Virus record (IMG/VR): IMGVR_UViG_3300020576_002722
Span: 1-64,000 of that record
Length of the DNA: 64,000 nt
Strand: one strand, 5' to 3'
DNA from: a virus
Lineage: Duplodnaviria > Heunggongvirae > Uroviricota > Caudoviricetes
The notes under the pieces are model-generated. The model saw nothing but the letters and a program-made list of their open reading frames with translations, did no database searches and was not told the DNA's origin. The stretch's first letter is position 1. Every line of letters starts with the position of its first letter. Below, in pieces: positions 24,295 through 64,000 of this stretch. Made by a program: the position numbers and the translations under genes.

Positions 24295-24334
24295 CGATTC
24301 GTCACAAAGTACTTGACGTATCAGGAATCTCTCT

Positions 24335-24342
24335 TACATTTG
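24335..24342 (+). promoter_or_regulatory. class I -7 box TACATTTG (context CTTACATTTGGGGC) upstream of the tRNA cluster
   Basis: The same extended motif TTAC(A/C)TTTG(C/G)GG occurs at 45075(-), 50895(-), 51567(+), 52061(+) and 54108(+). This copy lies 37 nt before the first tRNA-like gene. Confidence 0.5.
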
Positions 24343-24378: not shown

Positions 24379-24448
24379 GGCCGTGTAGCTCAGTTGGTAG
24401 AGCAGCCCCGACCGGGGTTGGTCGCAGGTTCGAGTCCTGCCACGGGTT
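24379..24448 (+). tRNA. tRNA-like gene with a defective anticodon arm (pseudo-tRNA or anticodon-less tRNA mimic)
   Basis: Parse: GGCCGTG-TA-GCTC-AGTTGGTA-GAGC-A-GCCCC-GACC-GGGGT-TGGTC-GCAGG-TTCGAGT-CCTGC-CACGGGT-T. The D- and T-arms are canonical. The anticodon arm is 3 nt short (4-nt or at best 6-nt loop), so no 7-nt anticodon loop can be drawn. There is a G2:G71 mismatch. Confidence 0.45.
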
Positions 24449-24570
24449 CAGGGAGTTCTTTTCTTCATGGTAGCAAAGGCGGGGTGATCACCGCCGAACT
24501 GGTAGTCGGAAGGCCGCAAGCCGGAGACGTTGTACCACATACGGCCTGTTATAGGACTTGGGGCCGTGCC

Positions 24571-25069: not shown

Positions 25070-25141
25070 GCGCGGATGGTGTAATTGGTAGCATGTCAGC
25101 CTTCCAAGCTGAGGGTGCGGGTTCAAGTCCCGCTCTGCGCT
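25070..25141 (+). tRNA. tRNA-Gly: tRNA-Gly (anticodon TCC)
   Basis: GCGCGGA-TG-GTGT-AATTGGTA-GCAT-G-TCAGC-CTTCCAA-GCTGA-GGGT-GCGGG-TTCAAGT-CCCGC-TCTGCGC-T. The discriminator T at 25141 is followed by C, then the ATG of the next gene at 25143. Confidence 0.9.
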
Positions 25142-25142
25142 C

Positions 25143-25535
25143 ATGGTGCGAATCGTATCCCATACCAGGATCAAGAAGCTCAGTGGCAAGGGCTACTGGA
25201 TATCGAAGATCTGTGTGCTCGATGAGCGCGGAAACACCGTGTTCGATTGCTACGCCCTGGAGGATGCGGCTGAGTGCCCTCCGGTAGGTACATGGGAGCT
25301 TGTCCTGGAGTACTCGCCCAAGTTCGGCAGGAAGCTGTACGAGATGAAGGGGATACCTGGCAGGGCCGAGATCAAGTACCACGTCGGAAACACCTTGGCC
25401 GACACCGACGGGTGCCCGCTACTCGGAGCCAACTACATCGGCAACACTGTCAATGGATCACGCCTAGCGCTTGATCGATTCATGAGGGCCATGCGTGGCG
25501 TCGACTGCACGACGGTCACCATATCGATCCAATAG
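25143..25535 (+). CDS. DUF5675-family protein (possible YkuD-like cell-wall enzyme)
   Basis: 130 aa. The sequence GTWELVLEYSPKFGRKLYEMKGIPGRAEIKYHVGNTLADTDGCPLLG matches my memory of the DUF5675 signature. Its H-x-G-N...D-G-C spacing resembles the H...GC catalytic motif of L,D-transpeptidase folds, which is inference. Confidence 0.7.
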   Translation: MVRIVSHTRIKKLSGKGYWISKICVLDERGNTVFDCYALEDAAECPPVGTWELVLEYSPKFGRKLYEMKGIPGRAEIKYHVGNTLADTDGCPLLGANYIGNTVNGSRLALDRFMRAMRGVDCTTVTISIQ

Positions 25536-25548: not shown

Positions 25549-25571
25549 CTCGTGTTCATGTGTGGTCAAGG

Positions 25572-25604
25572 CTCCAGGTCTGAAAGGATCTGGAGTTCTT
25601 GTTT
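25572..25604 (+). terminator. stem-loop plus T-tract (rho-independent terminator or 5'-UTR hairpin)
   Basis: CTCCAGGTC-TGAAAG-GATCTGGAG (9 bp including one G.T) is followed by TTCTTGTTT. The role is ambiguous because a promoter-like decamer lies just upstream. Confidence 0.5.
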
Positions 25605-26354
25605 ATGTGGGCACCAATGCCTATGTTTGACACCCCTATGAGGATCCTGTTCGCTGCCCTGATGCTCGTATCCTTGTTGGTACGCGGGCAATCCACATGC
25701 TCGACGGCAGCTCAGTTCTCGTACGGATGCGAGAACTTCCCACCACTGTATCCGGTTCAGGTGACCAGGTGCTACACCTTCCAGACGGGAGGATCGTCGG
25801 CCTACTACAACTTCTTGGTCACGGCCAACTGCTCCAACGACGTCATCTATTCCTTGTACAACCAAGAGTGCGATGTGCTGATCGACCAGAACATCTCCGG
25901 CGTCTTCAGCCTGATTCCGAATCAGGTGTACGTCGTGTGTGTGGACGTGGCCTGTACCAGCTCGGGCGGTATCAGGGCCATCTGTCCGTACGAGGAGTTC
26001 ACTCTTCCGATCGAGCTGCTCCGCTTCGATGCGCGTGCTGCGCAGGACGGTGTATCGGTGTCGTGGTCCACGGCCACCGAGCAGAACTCCTGGTACTTCA
26101 CCCTGTCCAGGTCCAATGACACGGAGCATTGGAGCCAAGAGGCCCAGATCCAGGCGGCCGGCAACAGCCAGAACACCATCAGGTACCAGTTCGTTGACCA
26201 TGAGCCCGCACTCGGCATCAGCTACTACAAGCTGGAGAGCGTTGACATCGACGGCAGCGCCCGCTTCATCGGCGTGGCCTCGGCCATCATGGTGTCGGGT
26301 GGAATTACATCATCCATTGATCCATACGACCTGATCGGTCGCCAAGTGAAATGA
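25605..26354 (+). CDS. secreted protein with signal peptide and a Bacteroidota-type C-terminal beta-sandwich/sorting-like domain
   Basis: The signal peptide MRILFAALMLVSLLVRGQS suggests the more likely start at 25638. The C-terminal region ELLRFDARAAQDGVSVSWSTATEQNSWYFTLSRSNDTEHW...GNSQNTIRYQFVDHEPALGISYYKLESVDIDG resembles a domain common in secreted Bacteroidota proteins. Confidence 0.65.
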   Translation: MWAPMPMFDTPMRILFAALMLVSLLVRGQSTCSTAAQFSYGCENFPPLYPVQVTRCYTFQTGGSSAYYNFLVTANCSNDVIYSLYNQECDVLIDQNISGVFSLIPNQVYVVCVDVACTSSGGIRAICPYEEFTLPIELLRFDARAAQDGVSVSWSTATEQNSWYFTLSRSNDTEHWSQEAQIQAAGNSQNTIRYQFVDHEPALGISYYKLESVDIDGSARFIGVASAIMVSGGITSSIDPYDLIGRQVK

Positions 26355-30618: not shown

Positions 30619-30640
30619 CCAGATAGGAGGCCGGTCAATG

Positions 30641-30676
30641 AAAGGGGCTAAGGAGGTTGCACTCCGAGGCCCCTTT
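30641..30676. terminator. long-loop hairpin AAAGGGGC...GCCCCTTT after the secreted-protein gene
   Basis: 8-bp stem with a 20-nt loop, followed by CGATTT. A weak terminator candidate. Confidence 0.35.
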
Positions 30677-30694
30677 CGATTTACCTGGAATACG

Positions 30695-31606: not shown

Positions 31607-31990
31607 TCAGCGCCCGGATCGAGGGTAGAAGACCCCTTTCATGTAGTCGTTCACGTCTGTCATGAACTCCTCTAGGGAGCGGCATTCATAGACTATCCAT
31701 CCAGCCTCTGAGAACCTGATCTGCATCTCTTTCTGTGACTCGGATAGCTTGCCTTTGTCAGACTTCATCTCGATGGCCATGCCGCAGACGTGCGTATCTC
31801 CATACGTCCTGGGATGGCACACCAGGATATCAGGGACTCCGGCCAGTACCCCCATGTCCTTCCACAATTTCCCCATGTGTGGACTCCCGGCATCTCTGCC
31901 ATTGGGAGGGTGGAACGCCAGGACGTTAGGGTACTGTAACCGGAGCCACTTGATACACGCCTTCTGGAGCGCTTGTTCTGGACGCTTCAT
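31607..31990 (-). CDS. VRR-NUC (PD-(D/E)xK) nuclease
   Basis: The start MKRPEQALQKACIKWL has an ATGA overlap with the RNA ligase stop. The catalytic motifs are GVPDILV ... GMAIEMKSDKGKLSESQ. Confidence 0.8.
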   Translation of the reverse strand: MKRPEQALQKACIKWLRLQYPNVLAFHPPNGRDAGSPHMGKLWKDMGVLAGVPDILVCHPRTYGDTHVCGMAIEMKSDKGKLSESQKEMQIRFSEAGWIVYECRSLEEFMTDVNDYMKGVFYPRSGR

Positions 31991-33063
31991 TCCTCGTACT
32001 TGAGAAGGAACTGAGGATTGATCGCCTTGAACGATATGCGTCCACGGGTCACCGTCTTGCCGGTGATGAAGGTCTCGGTCATCTCTTCCAGGCTGCGCAC
32101 CACGATCCCCTCGGCCCATACGTCGGGGTTGATGGCGCTCTTGCGGGTGGCGAAACCAACCAGCTCGTCAACACTGAGGGCACCAAGGGTGAGGCAGTCG
32201 ATGTACGGGACCATCTTCAGGTCCATCGATCCGAATGCGACTGCGGCATCGCTAGGCAGGTACGGCTTGCCGGCATCGATGTCGAACACGTTGAAGAAGA
32301 GAACCTTGCGGCCGGTCAGCTTGTACTTGTTGCCCTGGATCCCTTCGCCGATCAGCTCGCCCTGGATGGCGATGTTCTTGCCGTAGTCGCGGAGCTTCTG
32401 CTCGACGTTCATCTCTCGGGCGTACTGCCAGAACGCATTCCTTTCGTCCTCCTTCAGCTCCAGGTTGCGCGAGCAGACCCCGAACTCCCCGTTGTACAGG
32501 TAGAAGGTAGCGCTGCTGCCGTCCATCTTCTCGCGGATCTCCACCTGCGCTGCGGCGTACTTGTCCAGGATGCCTGGCATGTTCTGGATCCGCTCCTCGT
32601 CCGTCTTGTGGATGAAGGATGGGAAGTAGCCGCGCACGGTACCGCCCAGGCAGGCCGGGATGGCGGGCTCGTACTTGATGATGCCGAGCAGCTCTGTCAC
32701 ATCGTACCCTTCTGCTGACAAGCCCAAGGCTGCGAACAGCTCGTGCTCGGCCGTGATAACATCGGCAAGGATCGACACCGGCATCATCAGGCCCTGGGAT
32801 ACCTGTCCCTTGAGTTTGATGGTGCGCACACGCATGTGGCGTGGCTTCATGAACTCGAACTCTGGTCGGTCAGGAAGGATGCTGTCCGGCTCTATGAATA
32901 CGATCGAATCGCCAATTCTGTGTCCGGCATCGTTCCTGATCACGCACTTCCACCCCAATACGCTGGCTACGGACACTTCGTCGGCTCCGGGTATTGGCTG
33001 GATGTCAGAGATCGTCTGTATGCTTGCAAGTTTTCTGCTCATGATTTTGTGTTTGAGAGCCAT
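31987..33063 (-). CDS. ATP-dependent RNA ligase (DRB0094/Rnl5-like)
   Basis: The N-terminal module is RKLASIQTISDIQPIPGADEVSVASVLGWKCVIR. Nucleotidyl-transferase motif I is EKMDGSS (KxDG). Downstream motifs are EGIVVR and ISFKAINPQF. Confidence 0.85.
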   Translation of the reverse strand: MALKHKIMSRKLASIQTISDIQPIPGADEVSVASVLGWKCVIRNDAGHRIGDSIVFIEPDSILPDRPEFEFMKPRHMRVRTIKLKGQVSQGLMMPVSILADVITAEHELFAALGLSAEGYDVTELLGIIKYEPAIPACLGGTVRGYFPSFIHKTDEERIQNMPGILDKYAAAQVEIREKMDGSSATFYLYNGEFGVCSRNLELKEDERNAFWQYAREMNVEQKLRDYGKNIAIQGELIGEGIQGNKYKLTGRKVLFFNVFDIDAGKPYLPSDAAVAFGSMDLKMVPYIDCLTLGALSVDELVGFATRKSAINPDVWAEGIVVRSLEEMTETFITGKTVTRGRISFKAINPQFLLKYEE

Positions 33064-33458
33064 TCGATCGCTGATCGTAGGCGGTTAACGTCATCTTTCA
33101 AGTGGCCTATTCCCTTATTACAGGCAGAGCACAGGAGTCCCCTGACCCTACCGGTCTTGTGGTCGTGATCTACTGTCACTGTATCCATTGCTTGACCCTT
33201 GGTCTTTGTGGGCATCTTCATCTTGCACTTGCATATACCACACTCTCCGCGAAACGCCATCCACATGGCGTCAAACTCGCCCGGATCAAGCCCATACTTC
33301 TTGCTCAGGTGCCAGTTCCTGCGATATATGGATATGTCTGCATGTATGCGTCTATGCGATCCATTGCATTTGTAACAACGGACTGACTTATTTCCAGCCG
33401 TACCGGTTCCGCAGTCAATGCAGTGGCCTCTGATCCTACGCGTCTTGACTAACTCCAT
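33039..33458 (-). CDS. recombination endonuclease VII-like protein
   Basis: The sequence CGICKCKM...VDHDHKTGRVRGLLCSACNKGIG is the endo VII signature. Confidence 0.85.
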   Translation of the reverse strand: MELVKTRRIRGHCIDCGTGTAGNKSVRCYKCNGSHRRIHADISIYRRNWHLSKKYGLDPGEFDAMWMAFRGECGICKCKMKMPTKTKGQAMDTVTVDHDHKTGRVRGLLCSACNKGIGHLKDDVNRLRSAIEWLSNTKS

Positions 33459-33906
33459 TTGCTTCGTTGCGTAATGTATCCCTTCTCATGAACATGATGA
33501 TCCACGACTCCTGATCACCGTGCTTGCCAGATTCAAGATCCTCCCGGTTATTGTCATGCCAAGACTGGTGACAATGGCCGCAAACGATGCGGATATTCCG
33601 AGGATCCGTCTTGTAGTTCCTATACGTTCCCCTCTCAAGGAGGTGGGAGAAGTTGATCGGCTGCGGTGGATCGGATATTGGAATGCCGCATACCTCACAG
33701 CAGTGTTCCCGTAGGCCAAGATCATCACCGGTCTCCCAGATCTCCAGGGCTGCTTTCCACCAGCCCTTGTTTGATGGTGCCCTCTTCCGAAGTGGCTTCC
33801 TCTTGCTCTCCAGCTTCGACGCCTTCGTCACCAGGCCCCTCTTCATCATCTCCGTCAACGATGGCTTGGTGAACGGCTTCCTTGCGAGCTGCTTTTTCCT
33901 GAGCAT
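33436..33906 (-). CDS. HNH/NinG-like nuclease (start uncertain)
   Basis: It carries CCEVCG...HLLERGTYRNYKTDPRNIRIVCGHCH. Its 5' 180 nt overlaps the 3' end of the upstream ORF in another frame. Confidence 0.6.
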   Translation of the reverse strand: MLRKKQLARKPFTKPSLTEMMKRGLVTKASKLESKRKPLRKRAPSNKGWWKAALEIWETGDDLGLREHCCEVCGIPISDPPQPINFSHLLERGTYRNYKTDPRNIRIVCGHCHQSWHDNNREDLESGKHGDQESWIIMFMRRDTLRNEANGVSQDA

Positions 33907-37946: not shown

Positions 37947-38687
37947 CTATCCGTTGTATGATCGACCGACATCTTGCGATGAGTCGTCTGACCTTGTGGG
38001 TATGTATTGGCCTCCGTCCGACTTGATGGACCCCTTCACGGTTCCATTGGTCTTCATGAAGTGCCTGAATCGTTCCCTATCTTCGGGCTTCCAGTCCATC
38101 TCCGGCTTGACCGGCCCCAGGTCATCCTCCATCTTCAGATCCTCCACATACTCCTCCAGTTGCTTGGGTTTCGCTGCAACGAAGGAGAACCAGTCGGGCT
38201 TCTCGTACTTGTTGGAGCCCTTCATGCCGGCGTTGATAGAGCTGGCTGCCATGAGCCACTTGATGTCGTCGTATACCTCGGAGGATGTCTGTATCCTGCG
38301 CACGCCATAGATGATCGTAGCGTGGTCCCTGCTGTACGCTGCGGCGATCGATACATAGGTCAGCCCCATCTTGCGCAGCAGCCACCAGGCCACCATGCGT
38401 GCATTGGCCGCCGTGGCATTGTACCTGAGACCGGATCGCATGATCTCGTCGGTCAGCCCGTGGCACAGTACCTCGCTCATGGCCGACAGTACAGCCTCGT
38501 TCGCCTTGGTAACGAACTCGGGCGAAGACATCGATTGCGACATCTTCTGTGAGGCACGCAGCTGCTTGTCCCGAAGGATGCAACCTGCCACGACTCCATC
38601 GATGTCCTTTGTCCCGAGGGACGCCCTCTGTCTGATGTACTTGGCCAGGTGGCCAGGTACCGTGATCGTCATCATCTCTGCTTCCAT
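37947..38687 (-). CDS. DnaA C-terminal (domain IV) HTH-like protein, putative replication initiator
   Basis: The sequence NARMVAWWLLRKMGLTYVSIAAAYSRDHATIIYGVRRIQ matches the DnaA domain IV pattern (R..A.YL.R..T..S...IG..F.RDH.TV.H....I). The ATG lies 1 nt after the tRNA-Arg discriminator. Confidence 0.65.
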   Translation of the reverse strand: MEAEMMTITVPGHLAKYIRQRASLGTKDIDGVVAGCILRDKQLRASQKMSQSMSSPEFVTKANEAVLSAMSEVLCHGLTDEIMRSGLRYNATAANARMVAWWLLRKMGLTYVSIAAAYSRDHATIIYGVRRIQTSSEVYDDIKWLMAASSINAGMKGSNKYEKPDWFSFVAAKPKQLEEYVEDLKMEDDLGPVKPEMDWKPEDRERFRHFMKTNGTVKGSIKSDGGQYIPTRSDDSSQDVGRSYNG

Positions 38688-38688
38688 G

Positions 38689-38760
38689 AGGCCCCGCCAG
38701 GAGTCGAACCTGGATCTAGCGTTTAGGAAACGCTCGTTCTGTCCATTGAACTATGAGGCC
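38689..38760 (-). tRNA. tRNA-Arg: tRNA-Arg (anticodon CCT)
   Basis: Sense strand: GGCCTCA-TA-GTTC-AATGGACA-GAAC-G-AGCGT-TTCCTAA-ACGCT-AGAT-CCAGG-TTCGACT-CCTGG-CGGGGCC-T. It is followed by C, then ATG (38687). Confidence 0.9.
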
Positions 38761-38764
38761 AAGT

Positions 38765-38841
38765 GGTGTCGGGTGTGAAACAGGATACCTGTCGTCGAAC
38801 CAGGTAAACGCCCCTGCGTTGCCTTCGGGGCACCCGACACC
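38765..38841 (-). ncRNA. structured element (11-bp closing stem, internal hairpin, T-arm-like hairpin) between a stop codon and tRNA-Arg
   Basis: Sense strand: GGTGTCGGGTG-[GCCCC GAAGGCAACGCA GGGGC]-GTTT-[ACCTG GTTCGACGA CAGGT]-ATCCTGTTTCA-CACCCGACACC. It starts 4 nt after the TAG at 38846 and ends 4 nt before tRNA-Arg. Confidence 0.45.
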
Positions 38842-38845
38842 GGGA

Positions 38846-39238
38846 CTACTTCTCTTTCTTGTCCAGGTCGTCCAGATCCTGGAGCTTGTCCTTGAGCTGC
38901 TTGTTCAGCATGTCCATACGCCACGCGTAGTAGTCCTTGAAGCTCTGGAATCCACTGGGCTGCTTCTCCCAGGTGCGGTACAGGATGTTCTTCATCCGCT
39001 TGCTCTTGCTTACCGGGTTGTCGTTCAGATCCGTGTCGAGGGCATCCAGCTCACTCTTCTCGGCCTGGGTCAATTCGGTCTCGGCCTTGAAGTACATGTA
39101 GCCGAAGGTGTCGATCATCCCGTGGATCTTGGCGATGTCCTCGGGAGTCATCTCCTGGGTCACGAACTTCAGCATCACGGTCCTGTCCTTCCGGTTGCTG
39201 TAACCGTCGAACTGTGCTGGTAGAAGGATCTTGCCCAT
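38846..39238 (-). CDS. hypothetical protein (130 aa)
   Basis: Clean ORF with a Lys/Asp-rich C-terminal coiled coil. Confidence 0.65.
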   Translation of the reverse strand: MGKILLPAQFDGYSNRKDRTVMLKFVTQEMTPEDIAKIHGMIDTFGYMYFKAETELTQAEKSELDALDTDLNDNPVSKSKRMKNILYRTWEKQPSGFQSFKDYYAWRMDMLNKQLKDKLQDLDDLDKKEK

Positions 39239-41031: not shown

Positions 41032-41059
41032 AATCTAGTGTGCGTTGTCGACTTGTCAA
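41032..41059 (-). promoter_or_regulatory. promoter candidate TTGACA-N16-TAGATT(CG)
   Basis: Sense strand: TTGACAAGTCGACAACGCACACTAGATTCG. TAGATTCG also approximates TAnnTTTG. There are 21 nt to the ATG at 41010. Confidence 0.45.
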
Positions 41060-43970: not shown

Positions 43971-43972
43971 GC

Positions 43973-44012
43973 GGGCCTCCCGGTCTCGAACCGGGAAGAC
44001 TGCCTGTGGCCC
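43973..44012 (-). ncRNA. tRNA-like element T1 (acceptor plus T-arm)
   Basis: Sense strand: GGGCC-ACAGGCAGTCTT-CCCGG-TTCGAGA-CCGGG-A-GGCCC. It starts 6 nt after the TGA at 44019. Confidence 0.5.
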
Positions 44013-44018
44013 CGTTGA

Positions 44019-44822: not shown

Positions 44823-45068
44823 GGCGGCCGCTCACTTCGCCCTCAGAAGGACATGCGCTTTCCGTACAGGACCAGATCGCCATTGTTGCGGATCAGGTTG
44901 CGCATGATCTCCTTCATGCGACCGGTGGGTGACTTTTTGCCATGCGTGCCAGTCCATTGTTCTACATGCCGCGCCCCGAACAGGTGCTATGACCTGTTCG
45001 CGAGCGAATGGATCCCTGACGGGGCGCGGGCTTATTGTAAGTTACGGCATTCACGAAGTACGGTCATA
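44823..45068 (-). ncRNA. candidate non-coding transcript or structured leader (about 245 nt)
   Basis: No ORF longer than 24 aa on the sense strand. It begins after the class I -7 box at 45075-45082. It contains the nested helices GCGCCCCG...[GAACAGGT-CATAGC-ACCTGTTC]-GGGGCGC (about 44952-45014) and a hairpin GCATGA-AGGAGA-TCATGC, and it ends with the hairpin GGGCG...CGCCC (44823-44843). Confidence 0.35.
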
Positions 45069-45440: not shown

Positions 45441-45458
45441 ATGGCGATGTGACGCCAT
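45441..45458 (-). promoter_or_regulatory. conserved-loop hairpin H1 (sense AUGGCG-UCACAU-CGCCAU)
   Basis: 6-bp stem and 6-nt loop. It is one of 8 copies with an identical loop and unrelated but complementary stems. Confidence 0.7.
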
Positions 45459-48394: not shown

Positions 48395-48434
48395 GCCCGC
48401 CGTGGAATCGAACCACGGCGTGAACCGTTCGGGC
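48395..48434 (-). ncRNA. tRNA-like element T7
   Basis: Sense strand: GCCCG-AACGGTTCAC-GCCGTGG-TTCGATT-CCACGGC-GGGC, then AC. Its first G is the G of the upstream TAG stop. The linker is identical to T2 while both stems differ by compensatory changes. Confidence 0.65.
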
Positions 48435-49792: not shown

Positions 49793-49860
49793 TGGACCGT
49801 ACGGGAGTCGAACCCGCCGTCAAACCCCACCCGGGGCGGCCCTGTATTGCTCCACGGCTC
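49793..49860 (-). ncRNA. tRNA-like element T10 (about 68 nt, non-canonical core)
   Basis: Sense strand: GAGCCGT...CCCCGGGTGGGG...-GCGGG-TTCGACT-CCCGT-ACGGTCC-A-C. The acceptor has 7 bp with one mismatch. The D and anticodon regions cannot be drawn canonically. Confidence 0.45.
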
Positions 49861-52073: not shown

Positions 52074-53063
52074 ATGAGTCTGAACGAGTACCTGCGACAG
52101 AAGGTCCATTACATCCGCAAACAACGGAAACAGCTTCCGAACGACGCCTGGCACATGGACGATAGCACTCGTCAACAGATGCGCGACATCATCAGTGACC
52201 TTGGGGCACTGCAAGATATTCAGGCCGGCAGGCGCAAGGTGCTTCCTGGTGTCGTCGACAGGACCAAGAGTGGACCTATTGCGCACCCGGATGAATACGG
52301 ACCCGTGATCTATCGGTACGACGGGGTCGTCTATCGCCGGAAGAACGGAGTCACCACCGCCCTTGTTGAGCTGGATGAGACGATCAAGTGCGACGGATGC
52401 AACGTCTACCCAAACCAAGAAACCAACAACACACACATGGTAAGCCAAAGCAAGATCGATGAGGCCAAGTCCAGGGGTATTGTACCTGGAGCAACGATCA
52501 AGTGCGCATCGGTTCCCGACAGGTACGGCGTGGTCATGCCCACCTCGTACTGGAGGACAACGAGTGGCGGGGCTATCGATGTCGGCCTCGACAACAAGGG
52601 CACACAACTGTTCGCCTACTCCGGAGTGTTCAACAAGTGGTCCGAAGTGATCACCCTGGCACCGCCACCCATCGGGCTCCAGCCACAGGACGCCGTGAAG
52701 GCATCAGGGGCAATGCTCGCCGCCATCGCCGACAGGGCCGCCGAACTCGGGCTTCTCGACAGGAAGTTCGCGGGTGAGAACGGATCCGACTACCTGAATA
52801 GCGTGTCGGTACACTGGGACCCGACATGCTATTGCCCACTCCAGGTCGGCCACACACACGTCAAGCATAACCTTCTGACGCCGGACGAGTTCCTCCGTCG
52901 CCTGGAGAGCACGGTGTTGCAGCCTGTCACCAAGATCACAGAGCCGCGCATTGGCCGCGATCTTGAGCACACGGTCAAGTTCAACAAGGGCTCCATCACC
53001 GTTGGACGCACGACCGTTCCCAATGAAACCGTCCGCAAGATCGCGGCAAACCTCAAGGACTGA
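52074..53063 (+). CDS. hypothetical protein (329 aa)
   Basis: The start MSLNEYLRQK is chosen downstream of the promoter box. Alternative ATGs lie at 52053 and 51999. Confidence 0.6.
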   Translation: MSLNEYLRQKVHYIRKQRKQLPNDAWHMDDSTRQQMRDIISDLGALQDIQAGRRKVLPGVVDRTKSGPIAHPDEYGPVIYRYDGVVYRRKNGVTTALVELDETIKCDGCNVYPNQETNNTHMVSQSKIDEAKSRGIVPGATIKCASVPDRYGVVMPTSYWRTTSGGAIDVGLDNKGTQLFAYSGVFNKWSEVITLAPPPIGLQPQDAVKASGAMLAAIADRAAELGLLDRKFAGENGSDYLNSVSVHWDPTCYCPLQVGHTHVKHNLLTPDEFLRRLESTVLQPVTKITEPRIGRDLEHTVKFNKGSITVGRTTVPNETVRKIAANLKD

Positions 53064-53439: not shown

Positions 53440-53731
53440 GCTGATCCTCGTGGCCCTGGCGGCTGCATCGATCGGATACCAGCTGACGGATTTCGGGATC
53501 ATGTGGGAGGACGAGTTCCACATGATCCCGCCCGCTCGTCTATTGATACACGAGCCCCGTCGAACTTCATTGCCGTTCTACCATCCAGAGGCTACCTTTG
53601 TGAGGAGGAGATCTATCAGAAGGTCTTCTGTCCGAAAAAACGAGGATGAAATACTGGATCGCGTTCATCGTTGCTCTCTTCTGCCTGGACTCGTGCGCCC
53701 AGAGGTTGATGAGGAGCCACCTGGTTGGTGA
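53426..53731 (+). CDS. possible small membrane protein (doubtful 3' part)
   Basis: MRFHELILVALAAASIGYQL looks real. The Arg-rich tail overlaps the next gene. Confidence 0.3.
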   Translation: MRFHELILVALAAASIGYQLTDFGIMWEDEFHMIPPARLLIHEPRRTSLPFYHPEATFVRRRSIRRSSVRKNEDEILDRVHRCSLLPGLVRPEVDEEPPGW

Positions 53732-60508: not shown

Positions 60509-60749
60509 TCTCGCAAGCTATGACCTGCGTATTGTCCAGGGTCTCGCAGTGCCGGCATCCGGATGTCGTGGACTCGATCCACTCGTGGCCGTTGGTACAC
60601 TGGAACACCTTGATCGATACGGTTCGATCGTGGAAGTGATAGCCGTCGTCATCGTTGATCCTGAGGAGGGGCCCCTCTTGCTCGGTCTCCTCCATCAACT
60701 GTGGCCTGCTTCTCAGACCATCCCTCTTGCACACCGGACATTCGCTCAT
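60483..60749 (-). CDS. small zinc-ribbon protein (88 aa)
   Basis: CPVC...C..GH...CRHC. ATGA overlap with the macrodomain stop. Confidence 0.55.
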   Translation of the reverse strand: MSECPVCKRDGLRSRPQLMEETEQEGPLLRINDDDGYHFHDRTVSIKVFQCTNGHEWIESTTSGCRHCETLDNTQVIACENESQQPQH

Positions 60750-61204
60750 AGTTTCCAGAGATTCTTCTCAAAGGTATCAGGAATCCTGAAGTCGATGATC
60801 TCTCGGACCACGTTCCAGTTGAGGCCACCCAGGTGGCATCCGATCAATGGGAAGTTGATCGCAAGTGTTCCGTCGATCGCAGCCAAGACGGCTACCTGTT
60901 GCATACACGCATCCATCGCATCGTAACTCGCATACTTCCTCCCGTCCTTTCCGTAGAACTCCTGCGTGAAGCAGTTCATGACGATCGTGTTGTCGCTGCC
61001 GAACAGATGTACCTCTTGAACGTCACCAAGCAAGTGGCCTCCAGGTCTCTTGGACGCAACATGCTTCAAGTACTCAGTGAACACTTTGGGCCACTTGTTC
61101 CGGATGGCGAGCGCCACACCAGATCCCATCACGCCTTGGGTATTAACCCCGTGCAGGATGATGCCTTTCGCGGTGAGAAGGTCACCCTTGATCTCGTTGA
61201 TCAT
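60746..61204 (-). CDS. macrodomain protein (ADP-ribose-binding/hydrolase, Poa1p-like)
   Basis: The sequence is MINEIKGDLLTAKGIILHGVNTQGVMGSGVALAIRNKWP...NFPLIGCHLGGLNW. ATGA overlaps at both ends. Confidence 0.8.
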   Translation of the reverse strand: MINEIKGDLLTAKGIILHGVNTQGVMGSGVALAIRNKWPKVFTEYLKHVASKRPGGHLLGDVQEVHLFGSDNTIVMNCFTQEFYGKDGRKYASYDAMDACMQQVAVLAAIDGTLAINFPLIGCHLGGLNWNVVREIIDFRIPDTFEKNLWKL

Positions 61205-61986
61205 TTGAAGTAGGAGTCGATGCGTTCGCGGATCTCCCTCATGCTTCCAGCCCTAGTGATCACCCCGTCAGCGAACACCACATCGAAGGCGCAGTCGTGA
61301 ACATCTTCCCATGATGCCTGCTCCTGCAATAGGAACCCGTGATCGTGGTCGTGGTGTACAGCCAGGAGCCCCTTGGCGCTGTTCTTTCCACCATTGTCGG
61401 TCTTCGGCTTCTTGAAGATCTCGCGAGGCTTGTAGTTCACCACTCCGTAGGTGGCCTTGATCGCCATGCCGTAGGTGTCACGGGTCACATACTGGTACGT
61501 GTAGCTGCCGATGCCGAACACGACATTGGTGCTGGCGAACCCTTTCGCGATCAGCCTGTCGACGATCTTCTGGGCACGCTCCGGGGTGATGCTGTCTCCG
61601 TAGATGGCACCGATATGCGGGTCGAGAACCTTGAATCCCTTCTCGTTCACGGTACCTCCGAAGGTGTTCCATAGGCACTCAATGAGCCCTTTGCCCTCTG
61701 GGGTCATCTTGGTAAAGGTTCTAGTACCAGGAAGATGGTATCCGCACAGGATGTCCACCGGATCCCCGCTGTCTGGCCTGATCACCACCTTGCCTTCACG
61801 ATTCATGATCTCTGATTTCAGGGCCGGCAGATACTCGGTGACCACCTTCCAGAAGTCCCATGTGTCGCTGACGATGCTGATGATCCCGGACGGATGTACC
61901 TCAGTGATCAGGCGCTTGAAGTGGAGAAATTCCCCTCTTGTAAGTCTCTCTTCTTCAGAGAGTTTCCTTGTCCGTGTTTTCTTCAT
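61201..61986 (-). CDS. NAMPT/Namat-like phosphoribosyltransferase, C-terminal half
   Basis: FKRLITEVHPSGIISIVSDTWDFW, VVIRPDSGDP, IYGDSIT and VFGIGSYTYQ are the conserved C-terminal NAMPT motifs. The gene has its own ATG (MKKTRTRK...). Confidence 0.85.
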   Translation of the reverse strand: MKKTRTRKLSEEERLTRGEFLHFKRLITEVHPSGIISIVSDTWDFWKVVTEYLPALKSEIMNREGKVVIRPDSGDPVDILCGYHLPGTRTFTKMTPEGKGLIECLWNTFGGTVNEKGFKVLDPHIGAIYGDSITPERAQKIVDRLIAKGFASTNVVFGIGSYTYQYVTRDTYGMAIKATYGVVNYKPREIFKKPKTDNGGKNSAKGLLAVHHDHDHGFLLQEQASWEDVHDCAFDVVFADGVITRAGSMREIRERIDSYFK

Positions 61987-61993
61987 ACTTTTG
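61986..61993 (+). promoter_or_regulatory. TAnnTTTG -7 box (TACTTTTG) for the intervening HNH gene
   Basis: It lies 19 nt before the ATG at 62013 and overlaps the start codon of the NAMPT C-half on the other strand. Confidence 0.4.
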
Positions 61994-62012
61994 CTGTCGT
62001 TAACATGACCCT

Positions 62013-62675
62013 ATGATCGGGACAAAGATATGCTCCAGATGCAAGGATCGAAAGGTTCTTGACGAATTTCCAGTGAACTCCAGGTTCCCGGACGGAAGGA
62101 ACTCCAAATGCAAGCTCTGTACGAACGCACTGAACAAGGCTTACAGGGACTCCAATAAGGAGGCATTCTGCGCATCCAGGAGAAGGCACTACATAGCAAA
62201 CCTGGAGAAGATGCGATCTGGAAGGCGAAAGTACGCCGCATCCAACAAGGACAAAAAGAGCCAGTATGATGTATCGTACAGGGCTCAAAACAAATCCAAA
62301 ATAGCGGCCTACAAGAAACAGTGGGAAAGGAACCTCATGAGTGACCCTGTGTTCAGGATCAAGAGAAACCTTCGCCGCAGGATTAGTCACGTCCTTAACG
62401 GAAGACTGAAGACGGCAGATACGTTCAGCCTCGTTGGATGTACGCCGTCCGAGTTCAGGGACCACATTCAGTCCCAATGGACCGAAGGGATGTCCTGGGA
62501 TAACTACGGATACCGTGGATGGCATGTTGATCATGTGATACCGTGCTGCTCATTTGATCTGTCTACCGAGGATGGCCAGAGAAGGTGTTTTCACTTCAGC
62601 AACCAAAGGCCGCTATGGGCATTAGACAACCTTCGGAAGGGCAGGAAGATCCCTGACCCACTTCCATTGTCCTGA
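62013..62675 (+). CDS. HNH homing endonuclease, antisense between the two NAMPT halves
   Basis: The N-terminus has Cys pairs (CSRCK...CKLC). The HNH core is GWHVDHVIPCC...NQRPLWALDNLRKG. The gene has lower GC, and its 3' 54 nt overlaps the 3' end of the NAMPT N-half (convergent). Confidence 0.85.
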   Translation: MIGTKICSRCKDRKVLDEFPVNSRFPDGRNSKCKLCTNALNKAYRDSNKEAFCASRRRHYIANLEKMRSGRRKYAASNKDKKSQYDVSYRAQNKSKIAAYKKQWERNLMSDPVFRIKRNLRRRISHVLNGRLKTADTFSLVGCTPSEFRDHIQSQWTEGMSWDNYGYRGWHVDHVIPCCSFDLSTEDGQRRCFHFSNQRPLWALDNLRKGRKIPDPLPLS

Positions 62676-63452
62676 CGCCTCGTCGTACTCCTCTTCAACC
62701 TCCAGCACCTCTTCTGCATAATCTGTTGATGCAAGGCAGCAGACAGCATGTTCTGTGGCCGGCACCGAGTATCCGTCTGCACCTCCGTAGTACTCGTCAC
62801 AGAAGTCGAGCGCAGCGAACGTATCGGTCCCAAGGAACGATGTCAGGTGCGCGGCACCGCTCATGATAGCGGCCTCCACTCCGAACATCCCGCGCATCGA
62901 GAAGTCGTGGCCCTGGAACTTGACGAAGAACTTGTCGCCGCCACTCATTTCTGCGGCCCCCTCCAGGATCTGCCGGTACCGGAACGCCGTAGTTGCTGAC
63001 GTGATCATCGGCCACAGGGTGACAGACATCAGGGTCTCCAGGTAGTTCGGCAGCCAGTAGGCGCTCGGGTGCGTGTTGTAGGTCACCAGGAACGGGACCT
63101 TTGTCCGGACCTTTGATCCTTCAGGCAGCGCCATGATCGTGATCGGCAGGTATCCTAGATCATGCAGCTCTTCGATATGCTTCATCGATACCTTGTCGGG
63201 CCCAAGGTACGCGTCGATGCGCTTCTTGTAGGCAGCGACCGCGTCAGCCTTCGGAACCCCGAAGAAGGATTCATTCCACTCCTTTATCAGGTAGCGCTTG
63301 ATGTAGTACTTGAGGCCAAAGAAGATGTTGTAGTCGACACCAGGAATGCGGCTGCTCCTTGATGTCATGTTGTTGAACACGAGCGACGTTCCTTCCGGGA
63401 ACATGGGCGCATGTCCCACCTTGTATCCGTCTGTCAGGTTGAGCGCTTTCAT
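62622..63452 (-). CDS. NAMPT/Namat-like phosphoribosyltransferase, N-terminal half
   Basis: The start is MKALNLTDGYKVGH (TDSYK-type motif). It also has FQGHDFSMRGM, LGTDTFAAL and SVPATEHAV. It ends with a 30-aa tail encoded opposite the HNH 3' end. ATGA overlap with the Prs-like stop. Confidence 0.85.
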   Translation of the reverse strand: MKALNLTDGYKVGHAPMFPEGTSLVFNNMTSRSSRIPGVDYNIFFGLKYYIKRYLIKEWNESFFGVPKADAVAAYKKRIDAYLGPDKVSMKHIEELHDLGYLPITIMALPEGSKVRTKVPFLVTYNTHPSAYWLPNYLETLMSVTLWPMITSATTAFRYRQILEGAAEMSGGDKFFVKFQGHDFSMRGMFGVEAAIMSGAAHLTSFLGTDTFAALDFCDEYYGGADGYSVPATEHAVCCLASTDYAEEVLEVEEEYDEASGQWKWVRDLPALPKVV

Positions 63453-64000
63453 ATCTCTGTGCGGTTGATGCGTGATTCGTCGATACTGTCGAGCATGAAC
63501 GAGTTGGTCGTGTAGATGGCGTCGATTCCGTCGTTCAGCAATACGTCTAGGCCGTGCGTGAAGAGGCCGTGCGTGGCGCATAGGATGACCTTCTGGGCTC
63601 CGGCGTACTTCAGCTTCTTGGACAGCTCGATGAACGTCCTTCCTCCGTCGCAGATGTCGTCGACGATGATGACATCCTTATTGAGTAGGTCTGCTCCCAT
63701 GATCGCACCTGGGATCACTTTTCCGTCCTCCCTCCTCTTCGTCGTGAAGCAGATGCCATTGGTGTTGCCAACTGCGGCCGACATCAGGTCCACGCGCTTC
63801 ATGGCACCCAAGTCTGGTGCGCAGAACACAGCGTCAGGATACGCGGCCTTCGCAGCCATGACGTGGCCGACGAACCGCATGGTCGTGTAGTTGTCGATCA
63901 GCGCCGGCATCACATCGCTGTGCGGATCCAATGACATCACGCTCGTGTACCCCTGCGCATTGATCAACTTAGCCATGACCGACGCCGACAGGGCCTCCCC
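63449..64000 (-). CDS. ribose-phosphate pyrophosphokinase (Prs)-like protein, 5'-truncated by the window edge (candidate Adps)
   Basis: The frame is open to nt 64000. The PRPP-binding loop is VIIVDDICDGGRT, and the segment VILCATHGLF is typical of the Prs C-terminal domain. Confidence 0.85.
   Translation of the reverse strand, partial: GEALSASVMAKLINAQGYTSVMSLDPHSDVMPALIDNYTTMRFVGHVMAAKAAYPDAVFCAPDLGAMKRVDLMSAAVGNTNGICFTTKRREDGKVIPGAIMGADLLNKDVIIVDDICDGGRTFIELSKKLKYAGAQKVILCATHGLFTHGLDVLLNDGIDAIYTTNSFMLDSIDESRINRTEI

Follow-up and report, generated by a model that had tools for sequence, protein, structure and literature searches.

The window analysed here is a 64,000-nt stretch of DNA, positions 1 to 64,000 of the IMG/VR virus record IMGVR_UViG_3300020576_002722 (Caudoviricetes), and this study concerns one gap of 160 nt between two protein-coding genes on its minus strand. 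In this gap a stop codon, a 77-nt structured element, a tRNA-Arg gene and a start codon follow one another with almost no spare bases. We consider below whether the gap may serve as a site of RNA processing within the replication operon of the phage. Its features are as follows.

38846-38848 (-): UAG stop codon of the upstream 130-aa open reading frame (ORF; 38846-39238), from sequence reading
38842-38845 (-): spacer UCCC, 4 nt, from sequence reading
38765-38841 (-): 77-nt structured element, G38841 to C38765, a three-way junction closed by a clamp of 10-11 bp
38831-38841 (-): clamp 5' strand GGUGUCGGGUG, the first 11 bases of the 77-nt element
38765-38775 (-): clamp 3' strand CACCCGACACC, the last 11 bases of the 77-nt element
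38810-38831 (-): hairpin 1, GCCCC / 12-nt loop GAAGGCAACGCA / GGGGC, from folding
38787-38805 (-): hairpin 2, T-arm-like, ACCUG / GUUCGACGA / CAGGU, with GGUUCGA at 38795-38801
38776-38786 (-): 3' linker AUCCUGUUUCA, 11 nt, from the partition function
38761-38764 (-): spacer ACUU, 4 nt, whose U is position -1 to a predicted RNase P site
38689-38760 (-): tRNA-Arg(CCU), G38760 to discriminator U38689, from ARAGORN and Rfam, with CCA not encoded
38685-38688 (-): C38688, then AUG 38687-38685, the first in-frame start of the Bac_DnaA_C-domain gene (37947-38687)

A preliminary description, made from the letters alone, had given this minus-strand order, and its coordinates for the TAG, the spacers, the 77-nt element, the tRNA, the C and the AUG are all correct to the base. 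The two clamp strands, GGUGUCGGGUG and CACCCGACACC, are perfect 11-base complements separated by 55 bp, and the pair is also listed by an inverted repeat scan of the window. An 11-bp inverted repeat is not rare window-wide, as 3 distinct perfect inverted repeats of at least 11 bp with a gap of at most 80 nt (6 overlapping 11-mer matches) are found against 1.9 11-mer matches expected from shuffles; what is unusual is the exact fit of this one, 4 nt from the stop codon and 4 nt from the tRNA. The other two perfect repeats are on the plus strand, at 53494-53530 (13 bp, 11-nt loop, with no U tract after it) and 52954-53047 (12 bp, 70-nt gap), within or adjoining coding DNA.

The tRNA-Arg(CCT) reported in the preliminary description is genuine, being an above-threshold cloverleaf with an anticodon: ARAGORN calls a tRNA-Arg with anticodon CCU, and the Rfam model RF00005 scores it at 58.2 bits against a gathering threshold of 29. 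The cognate codon AGG is the second commonest arginine codon of the phage (174 of 613, 28%). The acceptor stem is polymorphic at 38696 (-), where an A7.C66 mismatch is found here and an A7-U66 pair in 8 of 10 variant contigs (L001-L010). Because the mismatch is repaired in most strains and AGG is frequent, this tRNA looks functional. CCA is encoded in none of the phage tRNAs, and when a tRNA gene has no encoded CCA, RNase Z cuts after the discriminator. A blastn search against 50,697 phage genomes gave matches limited to the tRNA part of the region, the closest case being the crAss-like phage cr106_1, whose tRNA-Arg lies within an ordinary tRNA/tmRNA cluster. The tRNA-related genes of the present phage comprise four tRNAs and an anticodon-less tRNA-like gene. 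The latter (24379-24449, plus strand) is the first gene of the tRNA cluster and is of full size, with an Rfam score of 45.8 bits; its anticodon arm is a GCCCC/GGGGU stem with a 4-nt loop and no anticodon, and its acceptor positions 1 and 2 are G.U and G.G. An RNA ligase (31987-33063, minus strand; PF09414, PHA02142 OB fold), which hints at tRNA or RNA repair, lies in the replication and repair block alongside an endonuclease VII and an HNH endonuclease (33039-33458 and 33436-33906, both minus strand).

Folded alone, the 77-nt element has a minimum free energy (MFE) of -36.5 kcal/mol, compared with -25 +/- 3.2 kcal/mol for dinucleotide shuffles (z -3.58), and 0 of 200 shuffles fold as well. RNA structure prediction, a check proposed in the preliminary description, therefore returns a very stable branched fold. 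The partition function gives the clamp pairs 1-10 a probability (P) of at least 0.87, and the internal GC hairpin and the GTTCGA-containing hairpin described earlier are both present in the predicted fold, the former (hairpin 1) with P 0.81 and the latter (ACCUG/CAGGU, with a loop that carries GUUCGACGA) with P 0.75. The closing stem had been put at 11 bp. This is right for the complementarity, which is perfect over 11 bases, but the ensemble favours a 10-bp clamp with a 5-bp hairpin, because G11 prefers C32 (P 0.67) to C67 (P 0.26). Hairpin 2 has a rival in a CAGG-UAU-CCUG hairpin (P 0.25, at most 1.4 kcal/mol above the minimum), which would stack on the clamp 3' strand, and the CCUG of the linker AUCCUGUUUCA is able to substitute for the 5' arm of hairpin 2. 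Another large clamp between genes is found on the minus strand at 44969-45029, where a perfect 10-bp GC stem (CCGCGCCCCG/CGGGGCGCGG) encloses a 19-nt bulge and an 8-9-bp hairpin (GAACAGGU/ACCUGUUC) that abuts the 3' strand; the next ATG is 11 nt downstream. The ACAGGU/ACCUGU arms of this second structure bear a likeness to the alternative hairpin in the 77-nt element.

Since the 10-11-bp clamp is predicted to be coaxial with the 5-bp hairpin through the continuous 5' strand, it would form a helix of about 15-16 bp in an intercistronic position, and we considered whether this helix is an RNase III site that splits the operon into halves independently of the tRNA. The RNase III sites of the phage T7 early region are the classical phage precedent for intercistronic structures that cut a polycistronic mRNA and leave stabilising 3' hairpins. 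They differ from the present case in nuclease and structure class, and here the duplex is only 10-16 bp and has a tRNA as its neighbour. Typical RNase III substrates, with some 20 bp or more of largely uninterrupted duplex, span about two helical turns, and the clamp with its hairpin is shorter. Moreover, the adjoining tRNA already offers two processing sites, and the other punctuation of this genome is tRNA-like and not long duplex. We therefore regard an RNase III site as improbable.

What class of RNA the 77-nt element belongs to is answered mainly by exclusion. Rfam 15, which includes Y RNA, tmRNA, self-cleaving ribozymes and riboswitches, gives no own-strand match on 38765-38841 at E <= 10. 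The single Rfam overlap with the element is on the opposite strand (Yfr20, 14.1 bits against a gathering threshold of 44, E 5), and a Deinococcus Y RNA match (E 5.6) covers the tRNA-Arg and not the element. A tRNA, including intron-bearing, armless and mitochondrial-type tRNAs, is likewise rejected, as RF00005 has no match at E <= 10 and ARAGORN is silent at its default setting; only at a 50% threshold does ARAGORN report a 'tRNA-Val', with a badly mispaired cloverleaf. The preliminary description had also offered a second tRNA mimic, and part of this suggestion survives. The T-loop-like heptamer UUCGACG is present, and with G11-C32 closing hairpin 1 the core spacing is that of the 3' two-thirds of a tRNA, namely a 5-bp stem, a 5-nt linker, a 5-position T stem and a 7-nt loop. 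The stem of hairpin 1 (GCCCC/GGGG) is also identical in sequence to the one in the anticodon arm of the tRNA-like gene at 24379. What does not hold, besides the missing Rfam match, is the T arm proper, whose closing position is G.A instead of G53-C61; this T-like arm is set off from the closing stem by 12 nt and does not lead into an acceptor end, and a D arm is missing. Likeness to the tRNAs of this genome is confined to CCUGGUUCGAC, in which 10 of 11 bases are common with the T arm of tRNA-Arg (shuffling p about 0.07, uncorrected). Sequence homology to the tRNAs or tRNA-like elements of the genome beyond this T-loop stretch was rejected (best p 0.03-0.07, uncorrected). The tRNA-like character of the 77-nt element is thus real but partial.

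The same T-loop motif recurs elsewhere in the genome. Between 43986 and 49814 the minus strand has ten copies of GGTTCGA, 9 of which are intergenic in the small-gene block. The punctuation that the preliminary description had seen in this block does exist, in the form of nine tRNA-like elements just after stop codons of the early block at 43.9-49.9 kb:

43972-44014 (-): m43986, short tRNA-like element, 49.5 bits
45461-45500 (-): m45474, short tRNA-like element, 62.1 bits
45983-46028 (-): m45998, short tRNA-like element, 43.8 bits
46492-46530 (-): m46505, short tRNA-like element, 55.3 bits
47051-47119 (-): m47068, larger tRNA-like element that ends GGCUCC-ACCA
48395-48434 (-): m48408, short tRNA-like element, 61.7 bits
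48796-48839 (-): m48811, short tRNA-like element, 45.7 bits
49298-49342 (-): m49311, tRNA-like element with an extra hairpin
49796-49858 (-): m49808, tRNA-like element with an extra CCCC/GGGG hairpin, 18 bits

These elements, 40-70 nt in length, have an acceptor-like stem of 4-7 bp, a D-loop-like bulge (AAYGGUUCNC) or an extra hairpin, and a T stem of 5-8 bp with the loop UUCGANU; the acceptor-like and T stems total 11-13 bp on a continuous 3' strand. A descriptor scan found 8 of the 9 elements together with 4 tRNA or tRNA-like genes, against 0.8 hits expected. The larger element m47068 has a weak likeness to the tRNA-like domain of tmRNA (E 0.038 with the Rfam tmRNA model, well short of the gathering threshold), and in the variant strain L031 three compensatory double substitutions are found in the orthologue of m49311. 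When metagenomes were scanned with the conserved loops, the same architecture was found on 15 contigs (L038-L052) of 36-64% G+C, and those examined are phages, including Mu-like transposable phages. In a covariation set of 25 distinct sequences from this phage and unrelated phages, 95% of cells are paired, 10 of 11 pairs have changes on both sides, and the T-loop closing G-C is invariant in all 25; the covariation score is 0.861, compared with at most 0.19 for slid controls. Their placement is equally regular, since 17 of the 25 begin -2 to +9 nt from the stop codon that ends an ORF of 50 codons or more (7% for random positions) and 23 have an ATG-initiated ORF 14-49 nt downstream. The short family has no Rfam match. 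It is real, covaries strongly and is present in unrelated metagenomic phages. A 5-bp hairpin with covarying stems and the conserved loop UCACAU is found 10-15 nt upstream of early-gene starts (TCACAT sites on the minus strand at 45447, 46478, 47040, 47902, 48782, 49284, 49779 and 50130), in most cases directly 3' of a short element. Other phages have analogous second hairpins after their tRNA-like elements, and the UCACAU hairpin could be a hairpin that protects 5' ends or a protein-binding site.

The 77-nt element shares with this family its genome, strand and position after a stop codon, and it too presents GGUUCGA in a hairpin loop; some members, such as m49808, also have a CCCC/GGGG hairpin before the T arm. 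However, the closing stem of the 77-nt element is longer (10-11 bp against 4-7 bp), 12 nt are inserted between its T-like arm and closing stem, its T loop is closed by G.A in place of the invariant G-C, and the AAYGGUUC D-loop-like bulge is missing. Membership was rejected, as the family covariance model, run with filters off, gives no hit on the element at E <= 10, compared with 44-62 bits for members. The idea that the element is the most elaborate version of the small-gene-block punctuation must accordingly be abandoned in the sense of family membership. As the family model gives it no score, it is a different object in the same kind of place.

The element has the length (77 nt), the closed ends and the high stability usual for stable small RNAs. 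This raises the alternative that it is cut out of the transcript, with RNase P or some other nuclease acting at its 5' end and RNase P acting 3' of it, at the tRNA, and that it accumulates as a stable small RNA with a role in trans. As a partial mimic of tRNA it could possibly titrate or recruit a host factor that binds tRNA, for instance a processing enzyme, a modification enzyme or a defence nuclease directed at tRNAs, or else it could be a base-pairing regulator. The GGUUCGA displayed in a hairpin loop and the investment of this phage in tRNA-related functions (the four tRNAs, the anticodon-less tRNA-like gene and the RNA ligase) agree with such a role, as does the tRNA cluster of phage T4, in which dimeric tRNA precursors are accompanied by the co-processed stable RNAs C and D, whose function is unknown. 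As in T4, a phage tRNA is here co-transcribed with an adjoining non-tRNA structured RNA of similar size, from which RNase P would separate it. Unlike in T4, which has a dedicated tRNA region, the pair lies between protein cistrons, flush with a stop and a start, and there is no sequence similarity. On the other hand, the element has no conserved family and no identifiable target, none of the Rfam models (Y RNA and tmRNA among them) matches it, its T loop is not closed by the G-C pair found without exception in tRNAs and in the 25 short elements, and its T-like hairpin is populated only 75%. We consider a trans-acting small RNA rather unlikely.

The conservation of the element bears on a further alternative. 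It is a lineage-specific singleton in all collections searched. No diverged copy was found in IMG/VR, GTDB genomes or the 50,697 phage genomes, or in the fetched loci; a megablast of the 1.6-kb region against phages gave no match; exact and degenerate DNA patterns of the element gave only chance hits in coding DNA of viral and genome collections; and a single-sequence covariance model (R2) run on the window and 18 loci matched only itself. Among the neighbouring genes, the DnaA-like protein has no IMG/VR loci and retrieves only itself from a search of 5.8 billion proteins, the helicase has relatives in only two other strain types (78-79% identity), and the sole diverged contig, L011, begins just downstream of the region, its upstream fragment having no homologue. 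Such a singleton could be a functionless relic or by-product, either the remnant of a tRNA or tRNA-like gene or a trace of the acquisition of tRNA-Arg, in which case only the tRNA matters. The degenerate T-arm-like part, with its G.A closing pair and 12-nt insert before the 3' strand, and the confinement of tRNA similarity to the T-loop stretch would fit this origin. However, decay does not yield a perfect, GC-rich 11-bp stem that fits, with 4 nt at either end, exactly into the space from a stop codon to a tRNA. Phages also have compact genomes, and the present one makes systematic use of structured RNA between cistrons. A relic is in our view unlikely.

The transcriptional and translational context of the gap requires two further features:

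41032-41059 (-): sigma-70-like promoter TTGACA-16-TAGATT, 10 of 12 consensus positions, which would drive the operon of the gap
25070-25145 (+): tRNA-Gly with discriminator U25141, C25142 and AUG 25143 of the DUF5675 gene (25143-25535), an analogous junction

The flanking genes and tRNA-Arg are on one strand and in one apparent transcription unit, with the DnaA-domain, helicase and primase genes downstream. The upstream neighbours had been labelled SSB and recombination genes, a label for which Pfam, PHROG and PDB give no hit; the single hint is the acidic ...EEDEAF C-terminus of a 241-aa protein. Between the promoter at 41059-41032 and the replication genes there is no other promoter of comparable quality. 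A promoter inside the 77-nt element was rejected, since the only candidate (38779-38750) matches the consensus at 9 of 12 positions, is weak and at chance level, and has its -10 hexamer within the tRNA. The motif ATTCGTCACA occurs three times in the window (24297-24340, plus strand; 41075-41032 and 44815-44806, minus strand), in two of the three copies 6 nt upstream of a TTGACR-16-TAnAtT promoter-like site, ahead of the tRNA cluster and of the replication operon, and it could serve as an activator site or UP-like element.

The preliminary description had also suggested a terminator or attenuator. Such a signal would set the ratio of upstream to downstream expression, and the strong GC-rich stem directly 3' of the stop codon would suit it. 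This role is not supported. The stem is followed by ACUUGGCC, without a U tract, and a scan of this strand finds no terminator-like site between 37.8 and 41.3 kb, whereas real terminators elsewhere in the genome (such as 25566-25600 and 30640-30677) carry U tracts. A terminator would also stand before a tRNA and essential replication genes for which no comparable promoter lies between. We hold this explanation to be very improbable. An equally slight chance is given to a role at the DNA level, where the inverted repeat would bind a protein, belong to an origin or form a hairpin for single-strand initiation beside the initiator gene. The position directly upstream of the DnaA-domain, helicase and primase genes and the perfect 11-bp inverted repeat would suit it, but no iterons or DnaA-box-like repeats are found nearby, arms 55 bp apart are atypical of an operator, and the T-loop-like hairpin and the tRNA context indicate RNA. 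Two other candidates were rejected. A repeat or mobile element is represented only by a third exact copy of the 11-mer, at 26291, inside a coding region. A stimulator of readthrough would use the frame of the upstream UAG, which stays open for 40 codons (38723-38845) up to a UAA in the tRNA-Arg anticodon loop; such a frame arises by chance in about 15% of cases and no suppressor tRNA is seen, so it is probably due to chance.

At the downstream end of the gap, AUG 38687 opens a 246-aa frame with the Bac_DnaA_C domain. The tRNA/U/C/AUG junction pointed out in the preliminary description recurs at tRNA-Gly, before a genuine DUF5675 gene, where the hexamer U-C-AUG-G (25141-25146) is the same as at tRNA-Arg. 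By analogy with this junction, 38687 is a plausible candidate for the start. Codon 5 of the DnaA-like frame is ATG here and ACG in most strains (the same contigs that have A7-U66), so that Met1 (38687) and Met6 (38672) remain as start candidates. Shine-Dalgarno sequences are missing before all of 37 gene starts in the window, whose leaders are mostly A/C-rich. For both the primase and tRNA-Arg, gut and crAss-like phages provide the closest relatives, and the G+C content of the window is 57.6%. The missing Shine-Dalgarno sequences, the A/C-rich leaders and the gut and crAss-like relatives suggest a Bacteroidia-like host. In Bacteroidia, initiation relies on unstructured leaders and not on Shine-Dalgarno pairing (PMC6847099). 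Because initiation would depend on such leaders, an AUG one base past a folded tRNA should become usable only once the tRNA has been taken out.

Tentatively, and with somewhat less than even confidence, we favour the interpretation that the gap is an RNA-processing cassette within a polycistronic replication operon, in which the tRNA would be excised, the upstream mRNA capped by the clamp and the initiator mRNA left essentially leaderless. The tRNA lies between cistrons, on the coding strand, and in one transcription unit with a promoter upstream and no terminator between, as is expected for tRNA punctuation. Transcription of the operon would start from the promoter at 41059-41032. Host RNase P would then cut between U38761 and G38760, and host RNase Z or an equivalent 3' activity after the discriminator U38689; host enzymes are assumed, since a Pfam search of the phage detected no RNase P or RNase Z. 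The cuts would release a functional tRNA-Arg(CCU), the decoder of the frequent AGG codon. The upstream mRNA would end in the 77-nt clamp plus ACUU, a very stable end that should block 3' exonucleases, and the mRNA for the DnaA-domain initiator, helicase and primase would begin at C-AUG, essentially without a leader. The 77-nt element itself would be a lineage-specific, partly tRNA-like structure, with a hairpin, a 5-nt linker and a T-arm-like hairpin, whose fold is locked by the long clamp. Every cleavage, the stabilising role and the leaderless initiation are steps that we infer. Among the functions proposed for the element in the preliminary description, a processing signal is the one that best fits the context (a same-strand operon, no terminator and a tRNA junction), and it appears plausible.

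Several points weigh against this interpretation. The cleavages in the cassette are read from sequence. To stabilise a 3' end a plain hairpin would suffice, which leaves the branched T-loop-like design without an explanation and keeps the small-RNA and relic alternatives alive. The 77-nt element is identical in all 21 lineage contigs that carry the sequence and has no homologue elsewhere. The MFE fold in a 221-nt context differs from that of the element alone, and the clamp, hairpin 1 and the tRNA cloverleaf are kept only in the centroid. Gene callers start the DnaA-domain gene 15 nt downstream, at AUG 38672 (Met6; 241 aa), which would give a 16-nt leader and not a leaderless mRNA. Finally, leaderless translation in a putative Bacteroidia-like host is an assumption.

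The proposed cassette invites comparison with mitochondria, where tRNA punctuation is the model of Ojala, Montoya and Attardi (reviewed in PMC8601606 and PMC11112384). In both, a tRNA lies between cistrons of a polycistronic transcript, its excision by RNase P and RNase Z would set the mRNA ends, and the downstream start codon is at or next to the processed 5' end, which gives a leaderless mRNA. The present case differs in that it concerns a bacteriophage operon with one true tRNA so used and an extra 77-nt structure before this tRNA, and in that cleavage is deduced here; elsewhere the phage has short tRNA-like elements followed by a leader of 14-49 nt.

Acceptor/T-arm mimics that are cut by RNase P and RNase Z to give mRNA or lncRNA ends are known from plant mitochondrial t-elements and from the 3' modules of MALAT1/mascRNA and MEN-beta, and in modules of the t-element and MALAT1 type the upstream RNA is protected by an adjacent stable structure. 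Unlike these modules, the 77-nt element has no acceptor end continuous with its T-like arm, and the substrate in the cassette would be a real tRNA. Because of the missing acceptor end, the element is more likely a protective structure than a substrate. By analogy, mitochondrial tRNA punctuation, the tRNA-like 3'-end modules and the co-processed stable RNAs of T4 would be the closest functional counterparts of the cassette.

As a broader speculation, which we put forward as possible but doubtful, the cassette would be one site of a phage-wide strategy in which host tRNA-processing enzymes cut polycistronic mRNAs at real tRNAs and at the minimal tRNA-like elements that follow stop codons, a family both widespread and unannotated, giving defined and even leaderless mRNAs in a host that ignores Shine-Dalgarno sequences. 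Under such a strategy the 77-nt element would represent a novel tRNA-derived RNA specific to the lineage, and would serve as a 3'-end cap for the upstream mRNA or else as a stable small RNA with a target of its own. This strategy has not yet been described for bacteriophages. Full-text literature searches found neither tRNA punctuation nor minimal tRNA-like elements described for phages, and in a large catalogue of structured RNAs from phages the tRNA-like candidates are mentioned in general terms only (PMC10690425). If the processing model holds, organelle-style tRNA punctuation would control the expression of phage replication genes, the carriage of tRNAs by phages would be tied to mRNA processing beyond codon supply, and there would be a concrete case in a bacterial virus of leaderless mRNA made by tRNA excision. 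The short elements (about 40-50 nt, absent from Rfam, in many unrelated phages) would offer a simple candidate set of substrates for RNase P and RNase Z, and possibly an annotation rule for early operons in phages of hosts that do not use Shine-Dalgarno sequences.

In another part of the window, at 60746-63581 on the minus strand, a Macro-domain protein adjoins a nicotinamide/nicotinate phosphoribosyltransferase that is apparently split (62622-63581 and 61201-61986) with a 183-aa ORF between the two parts, and this region may be an NAD-salvage counter-defence module that was broken by an insertion.

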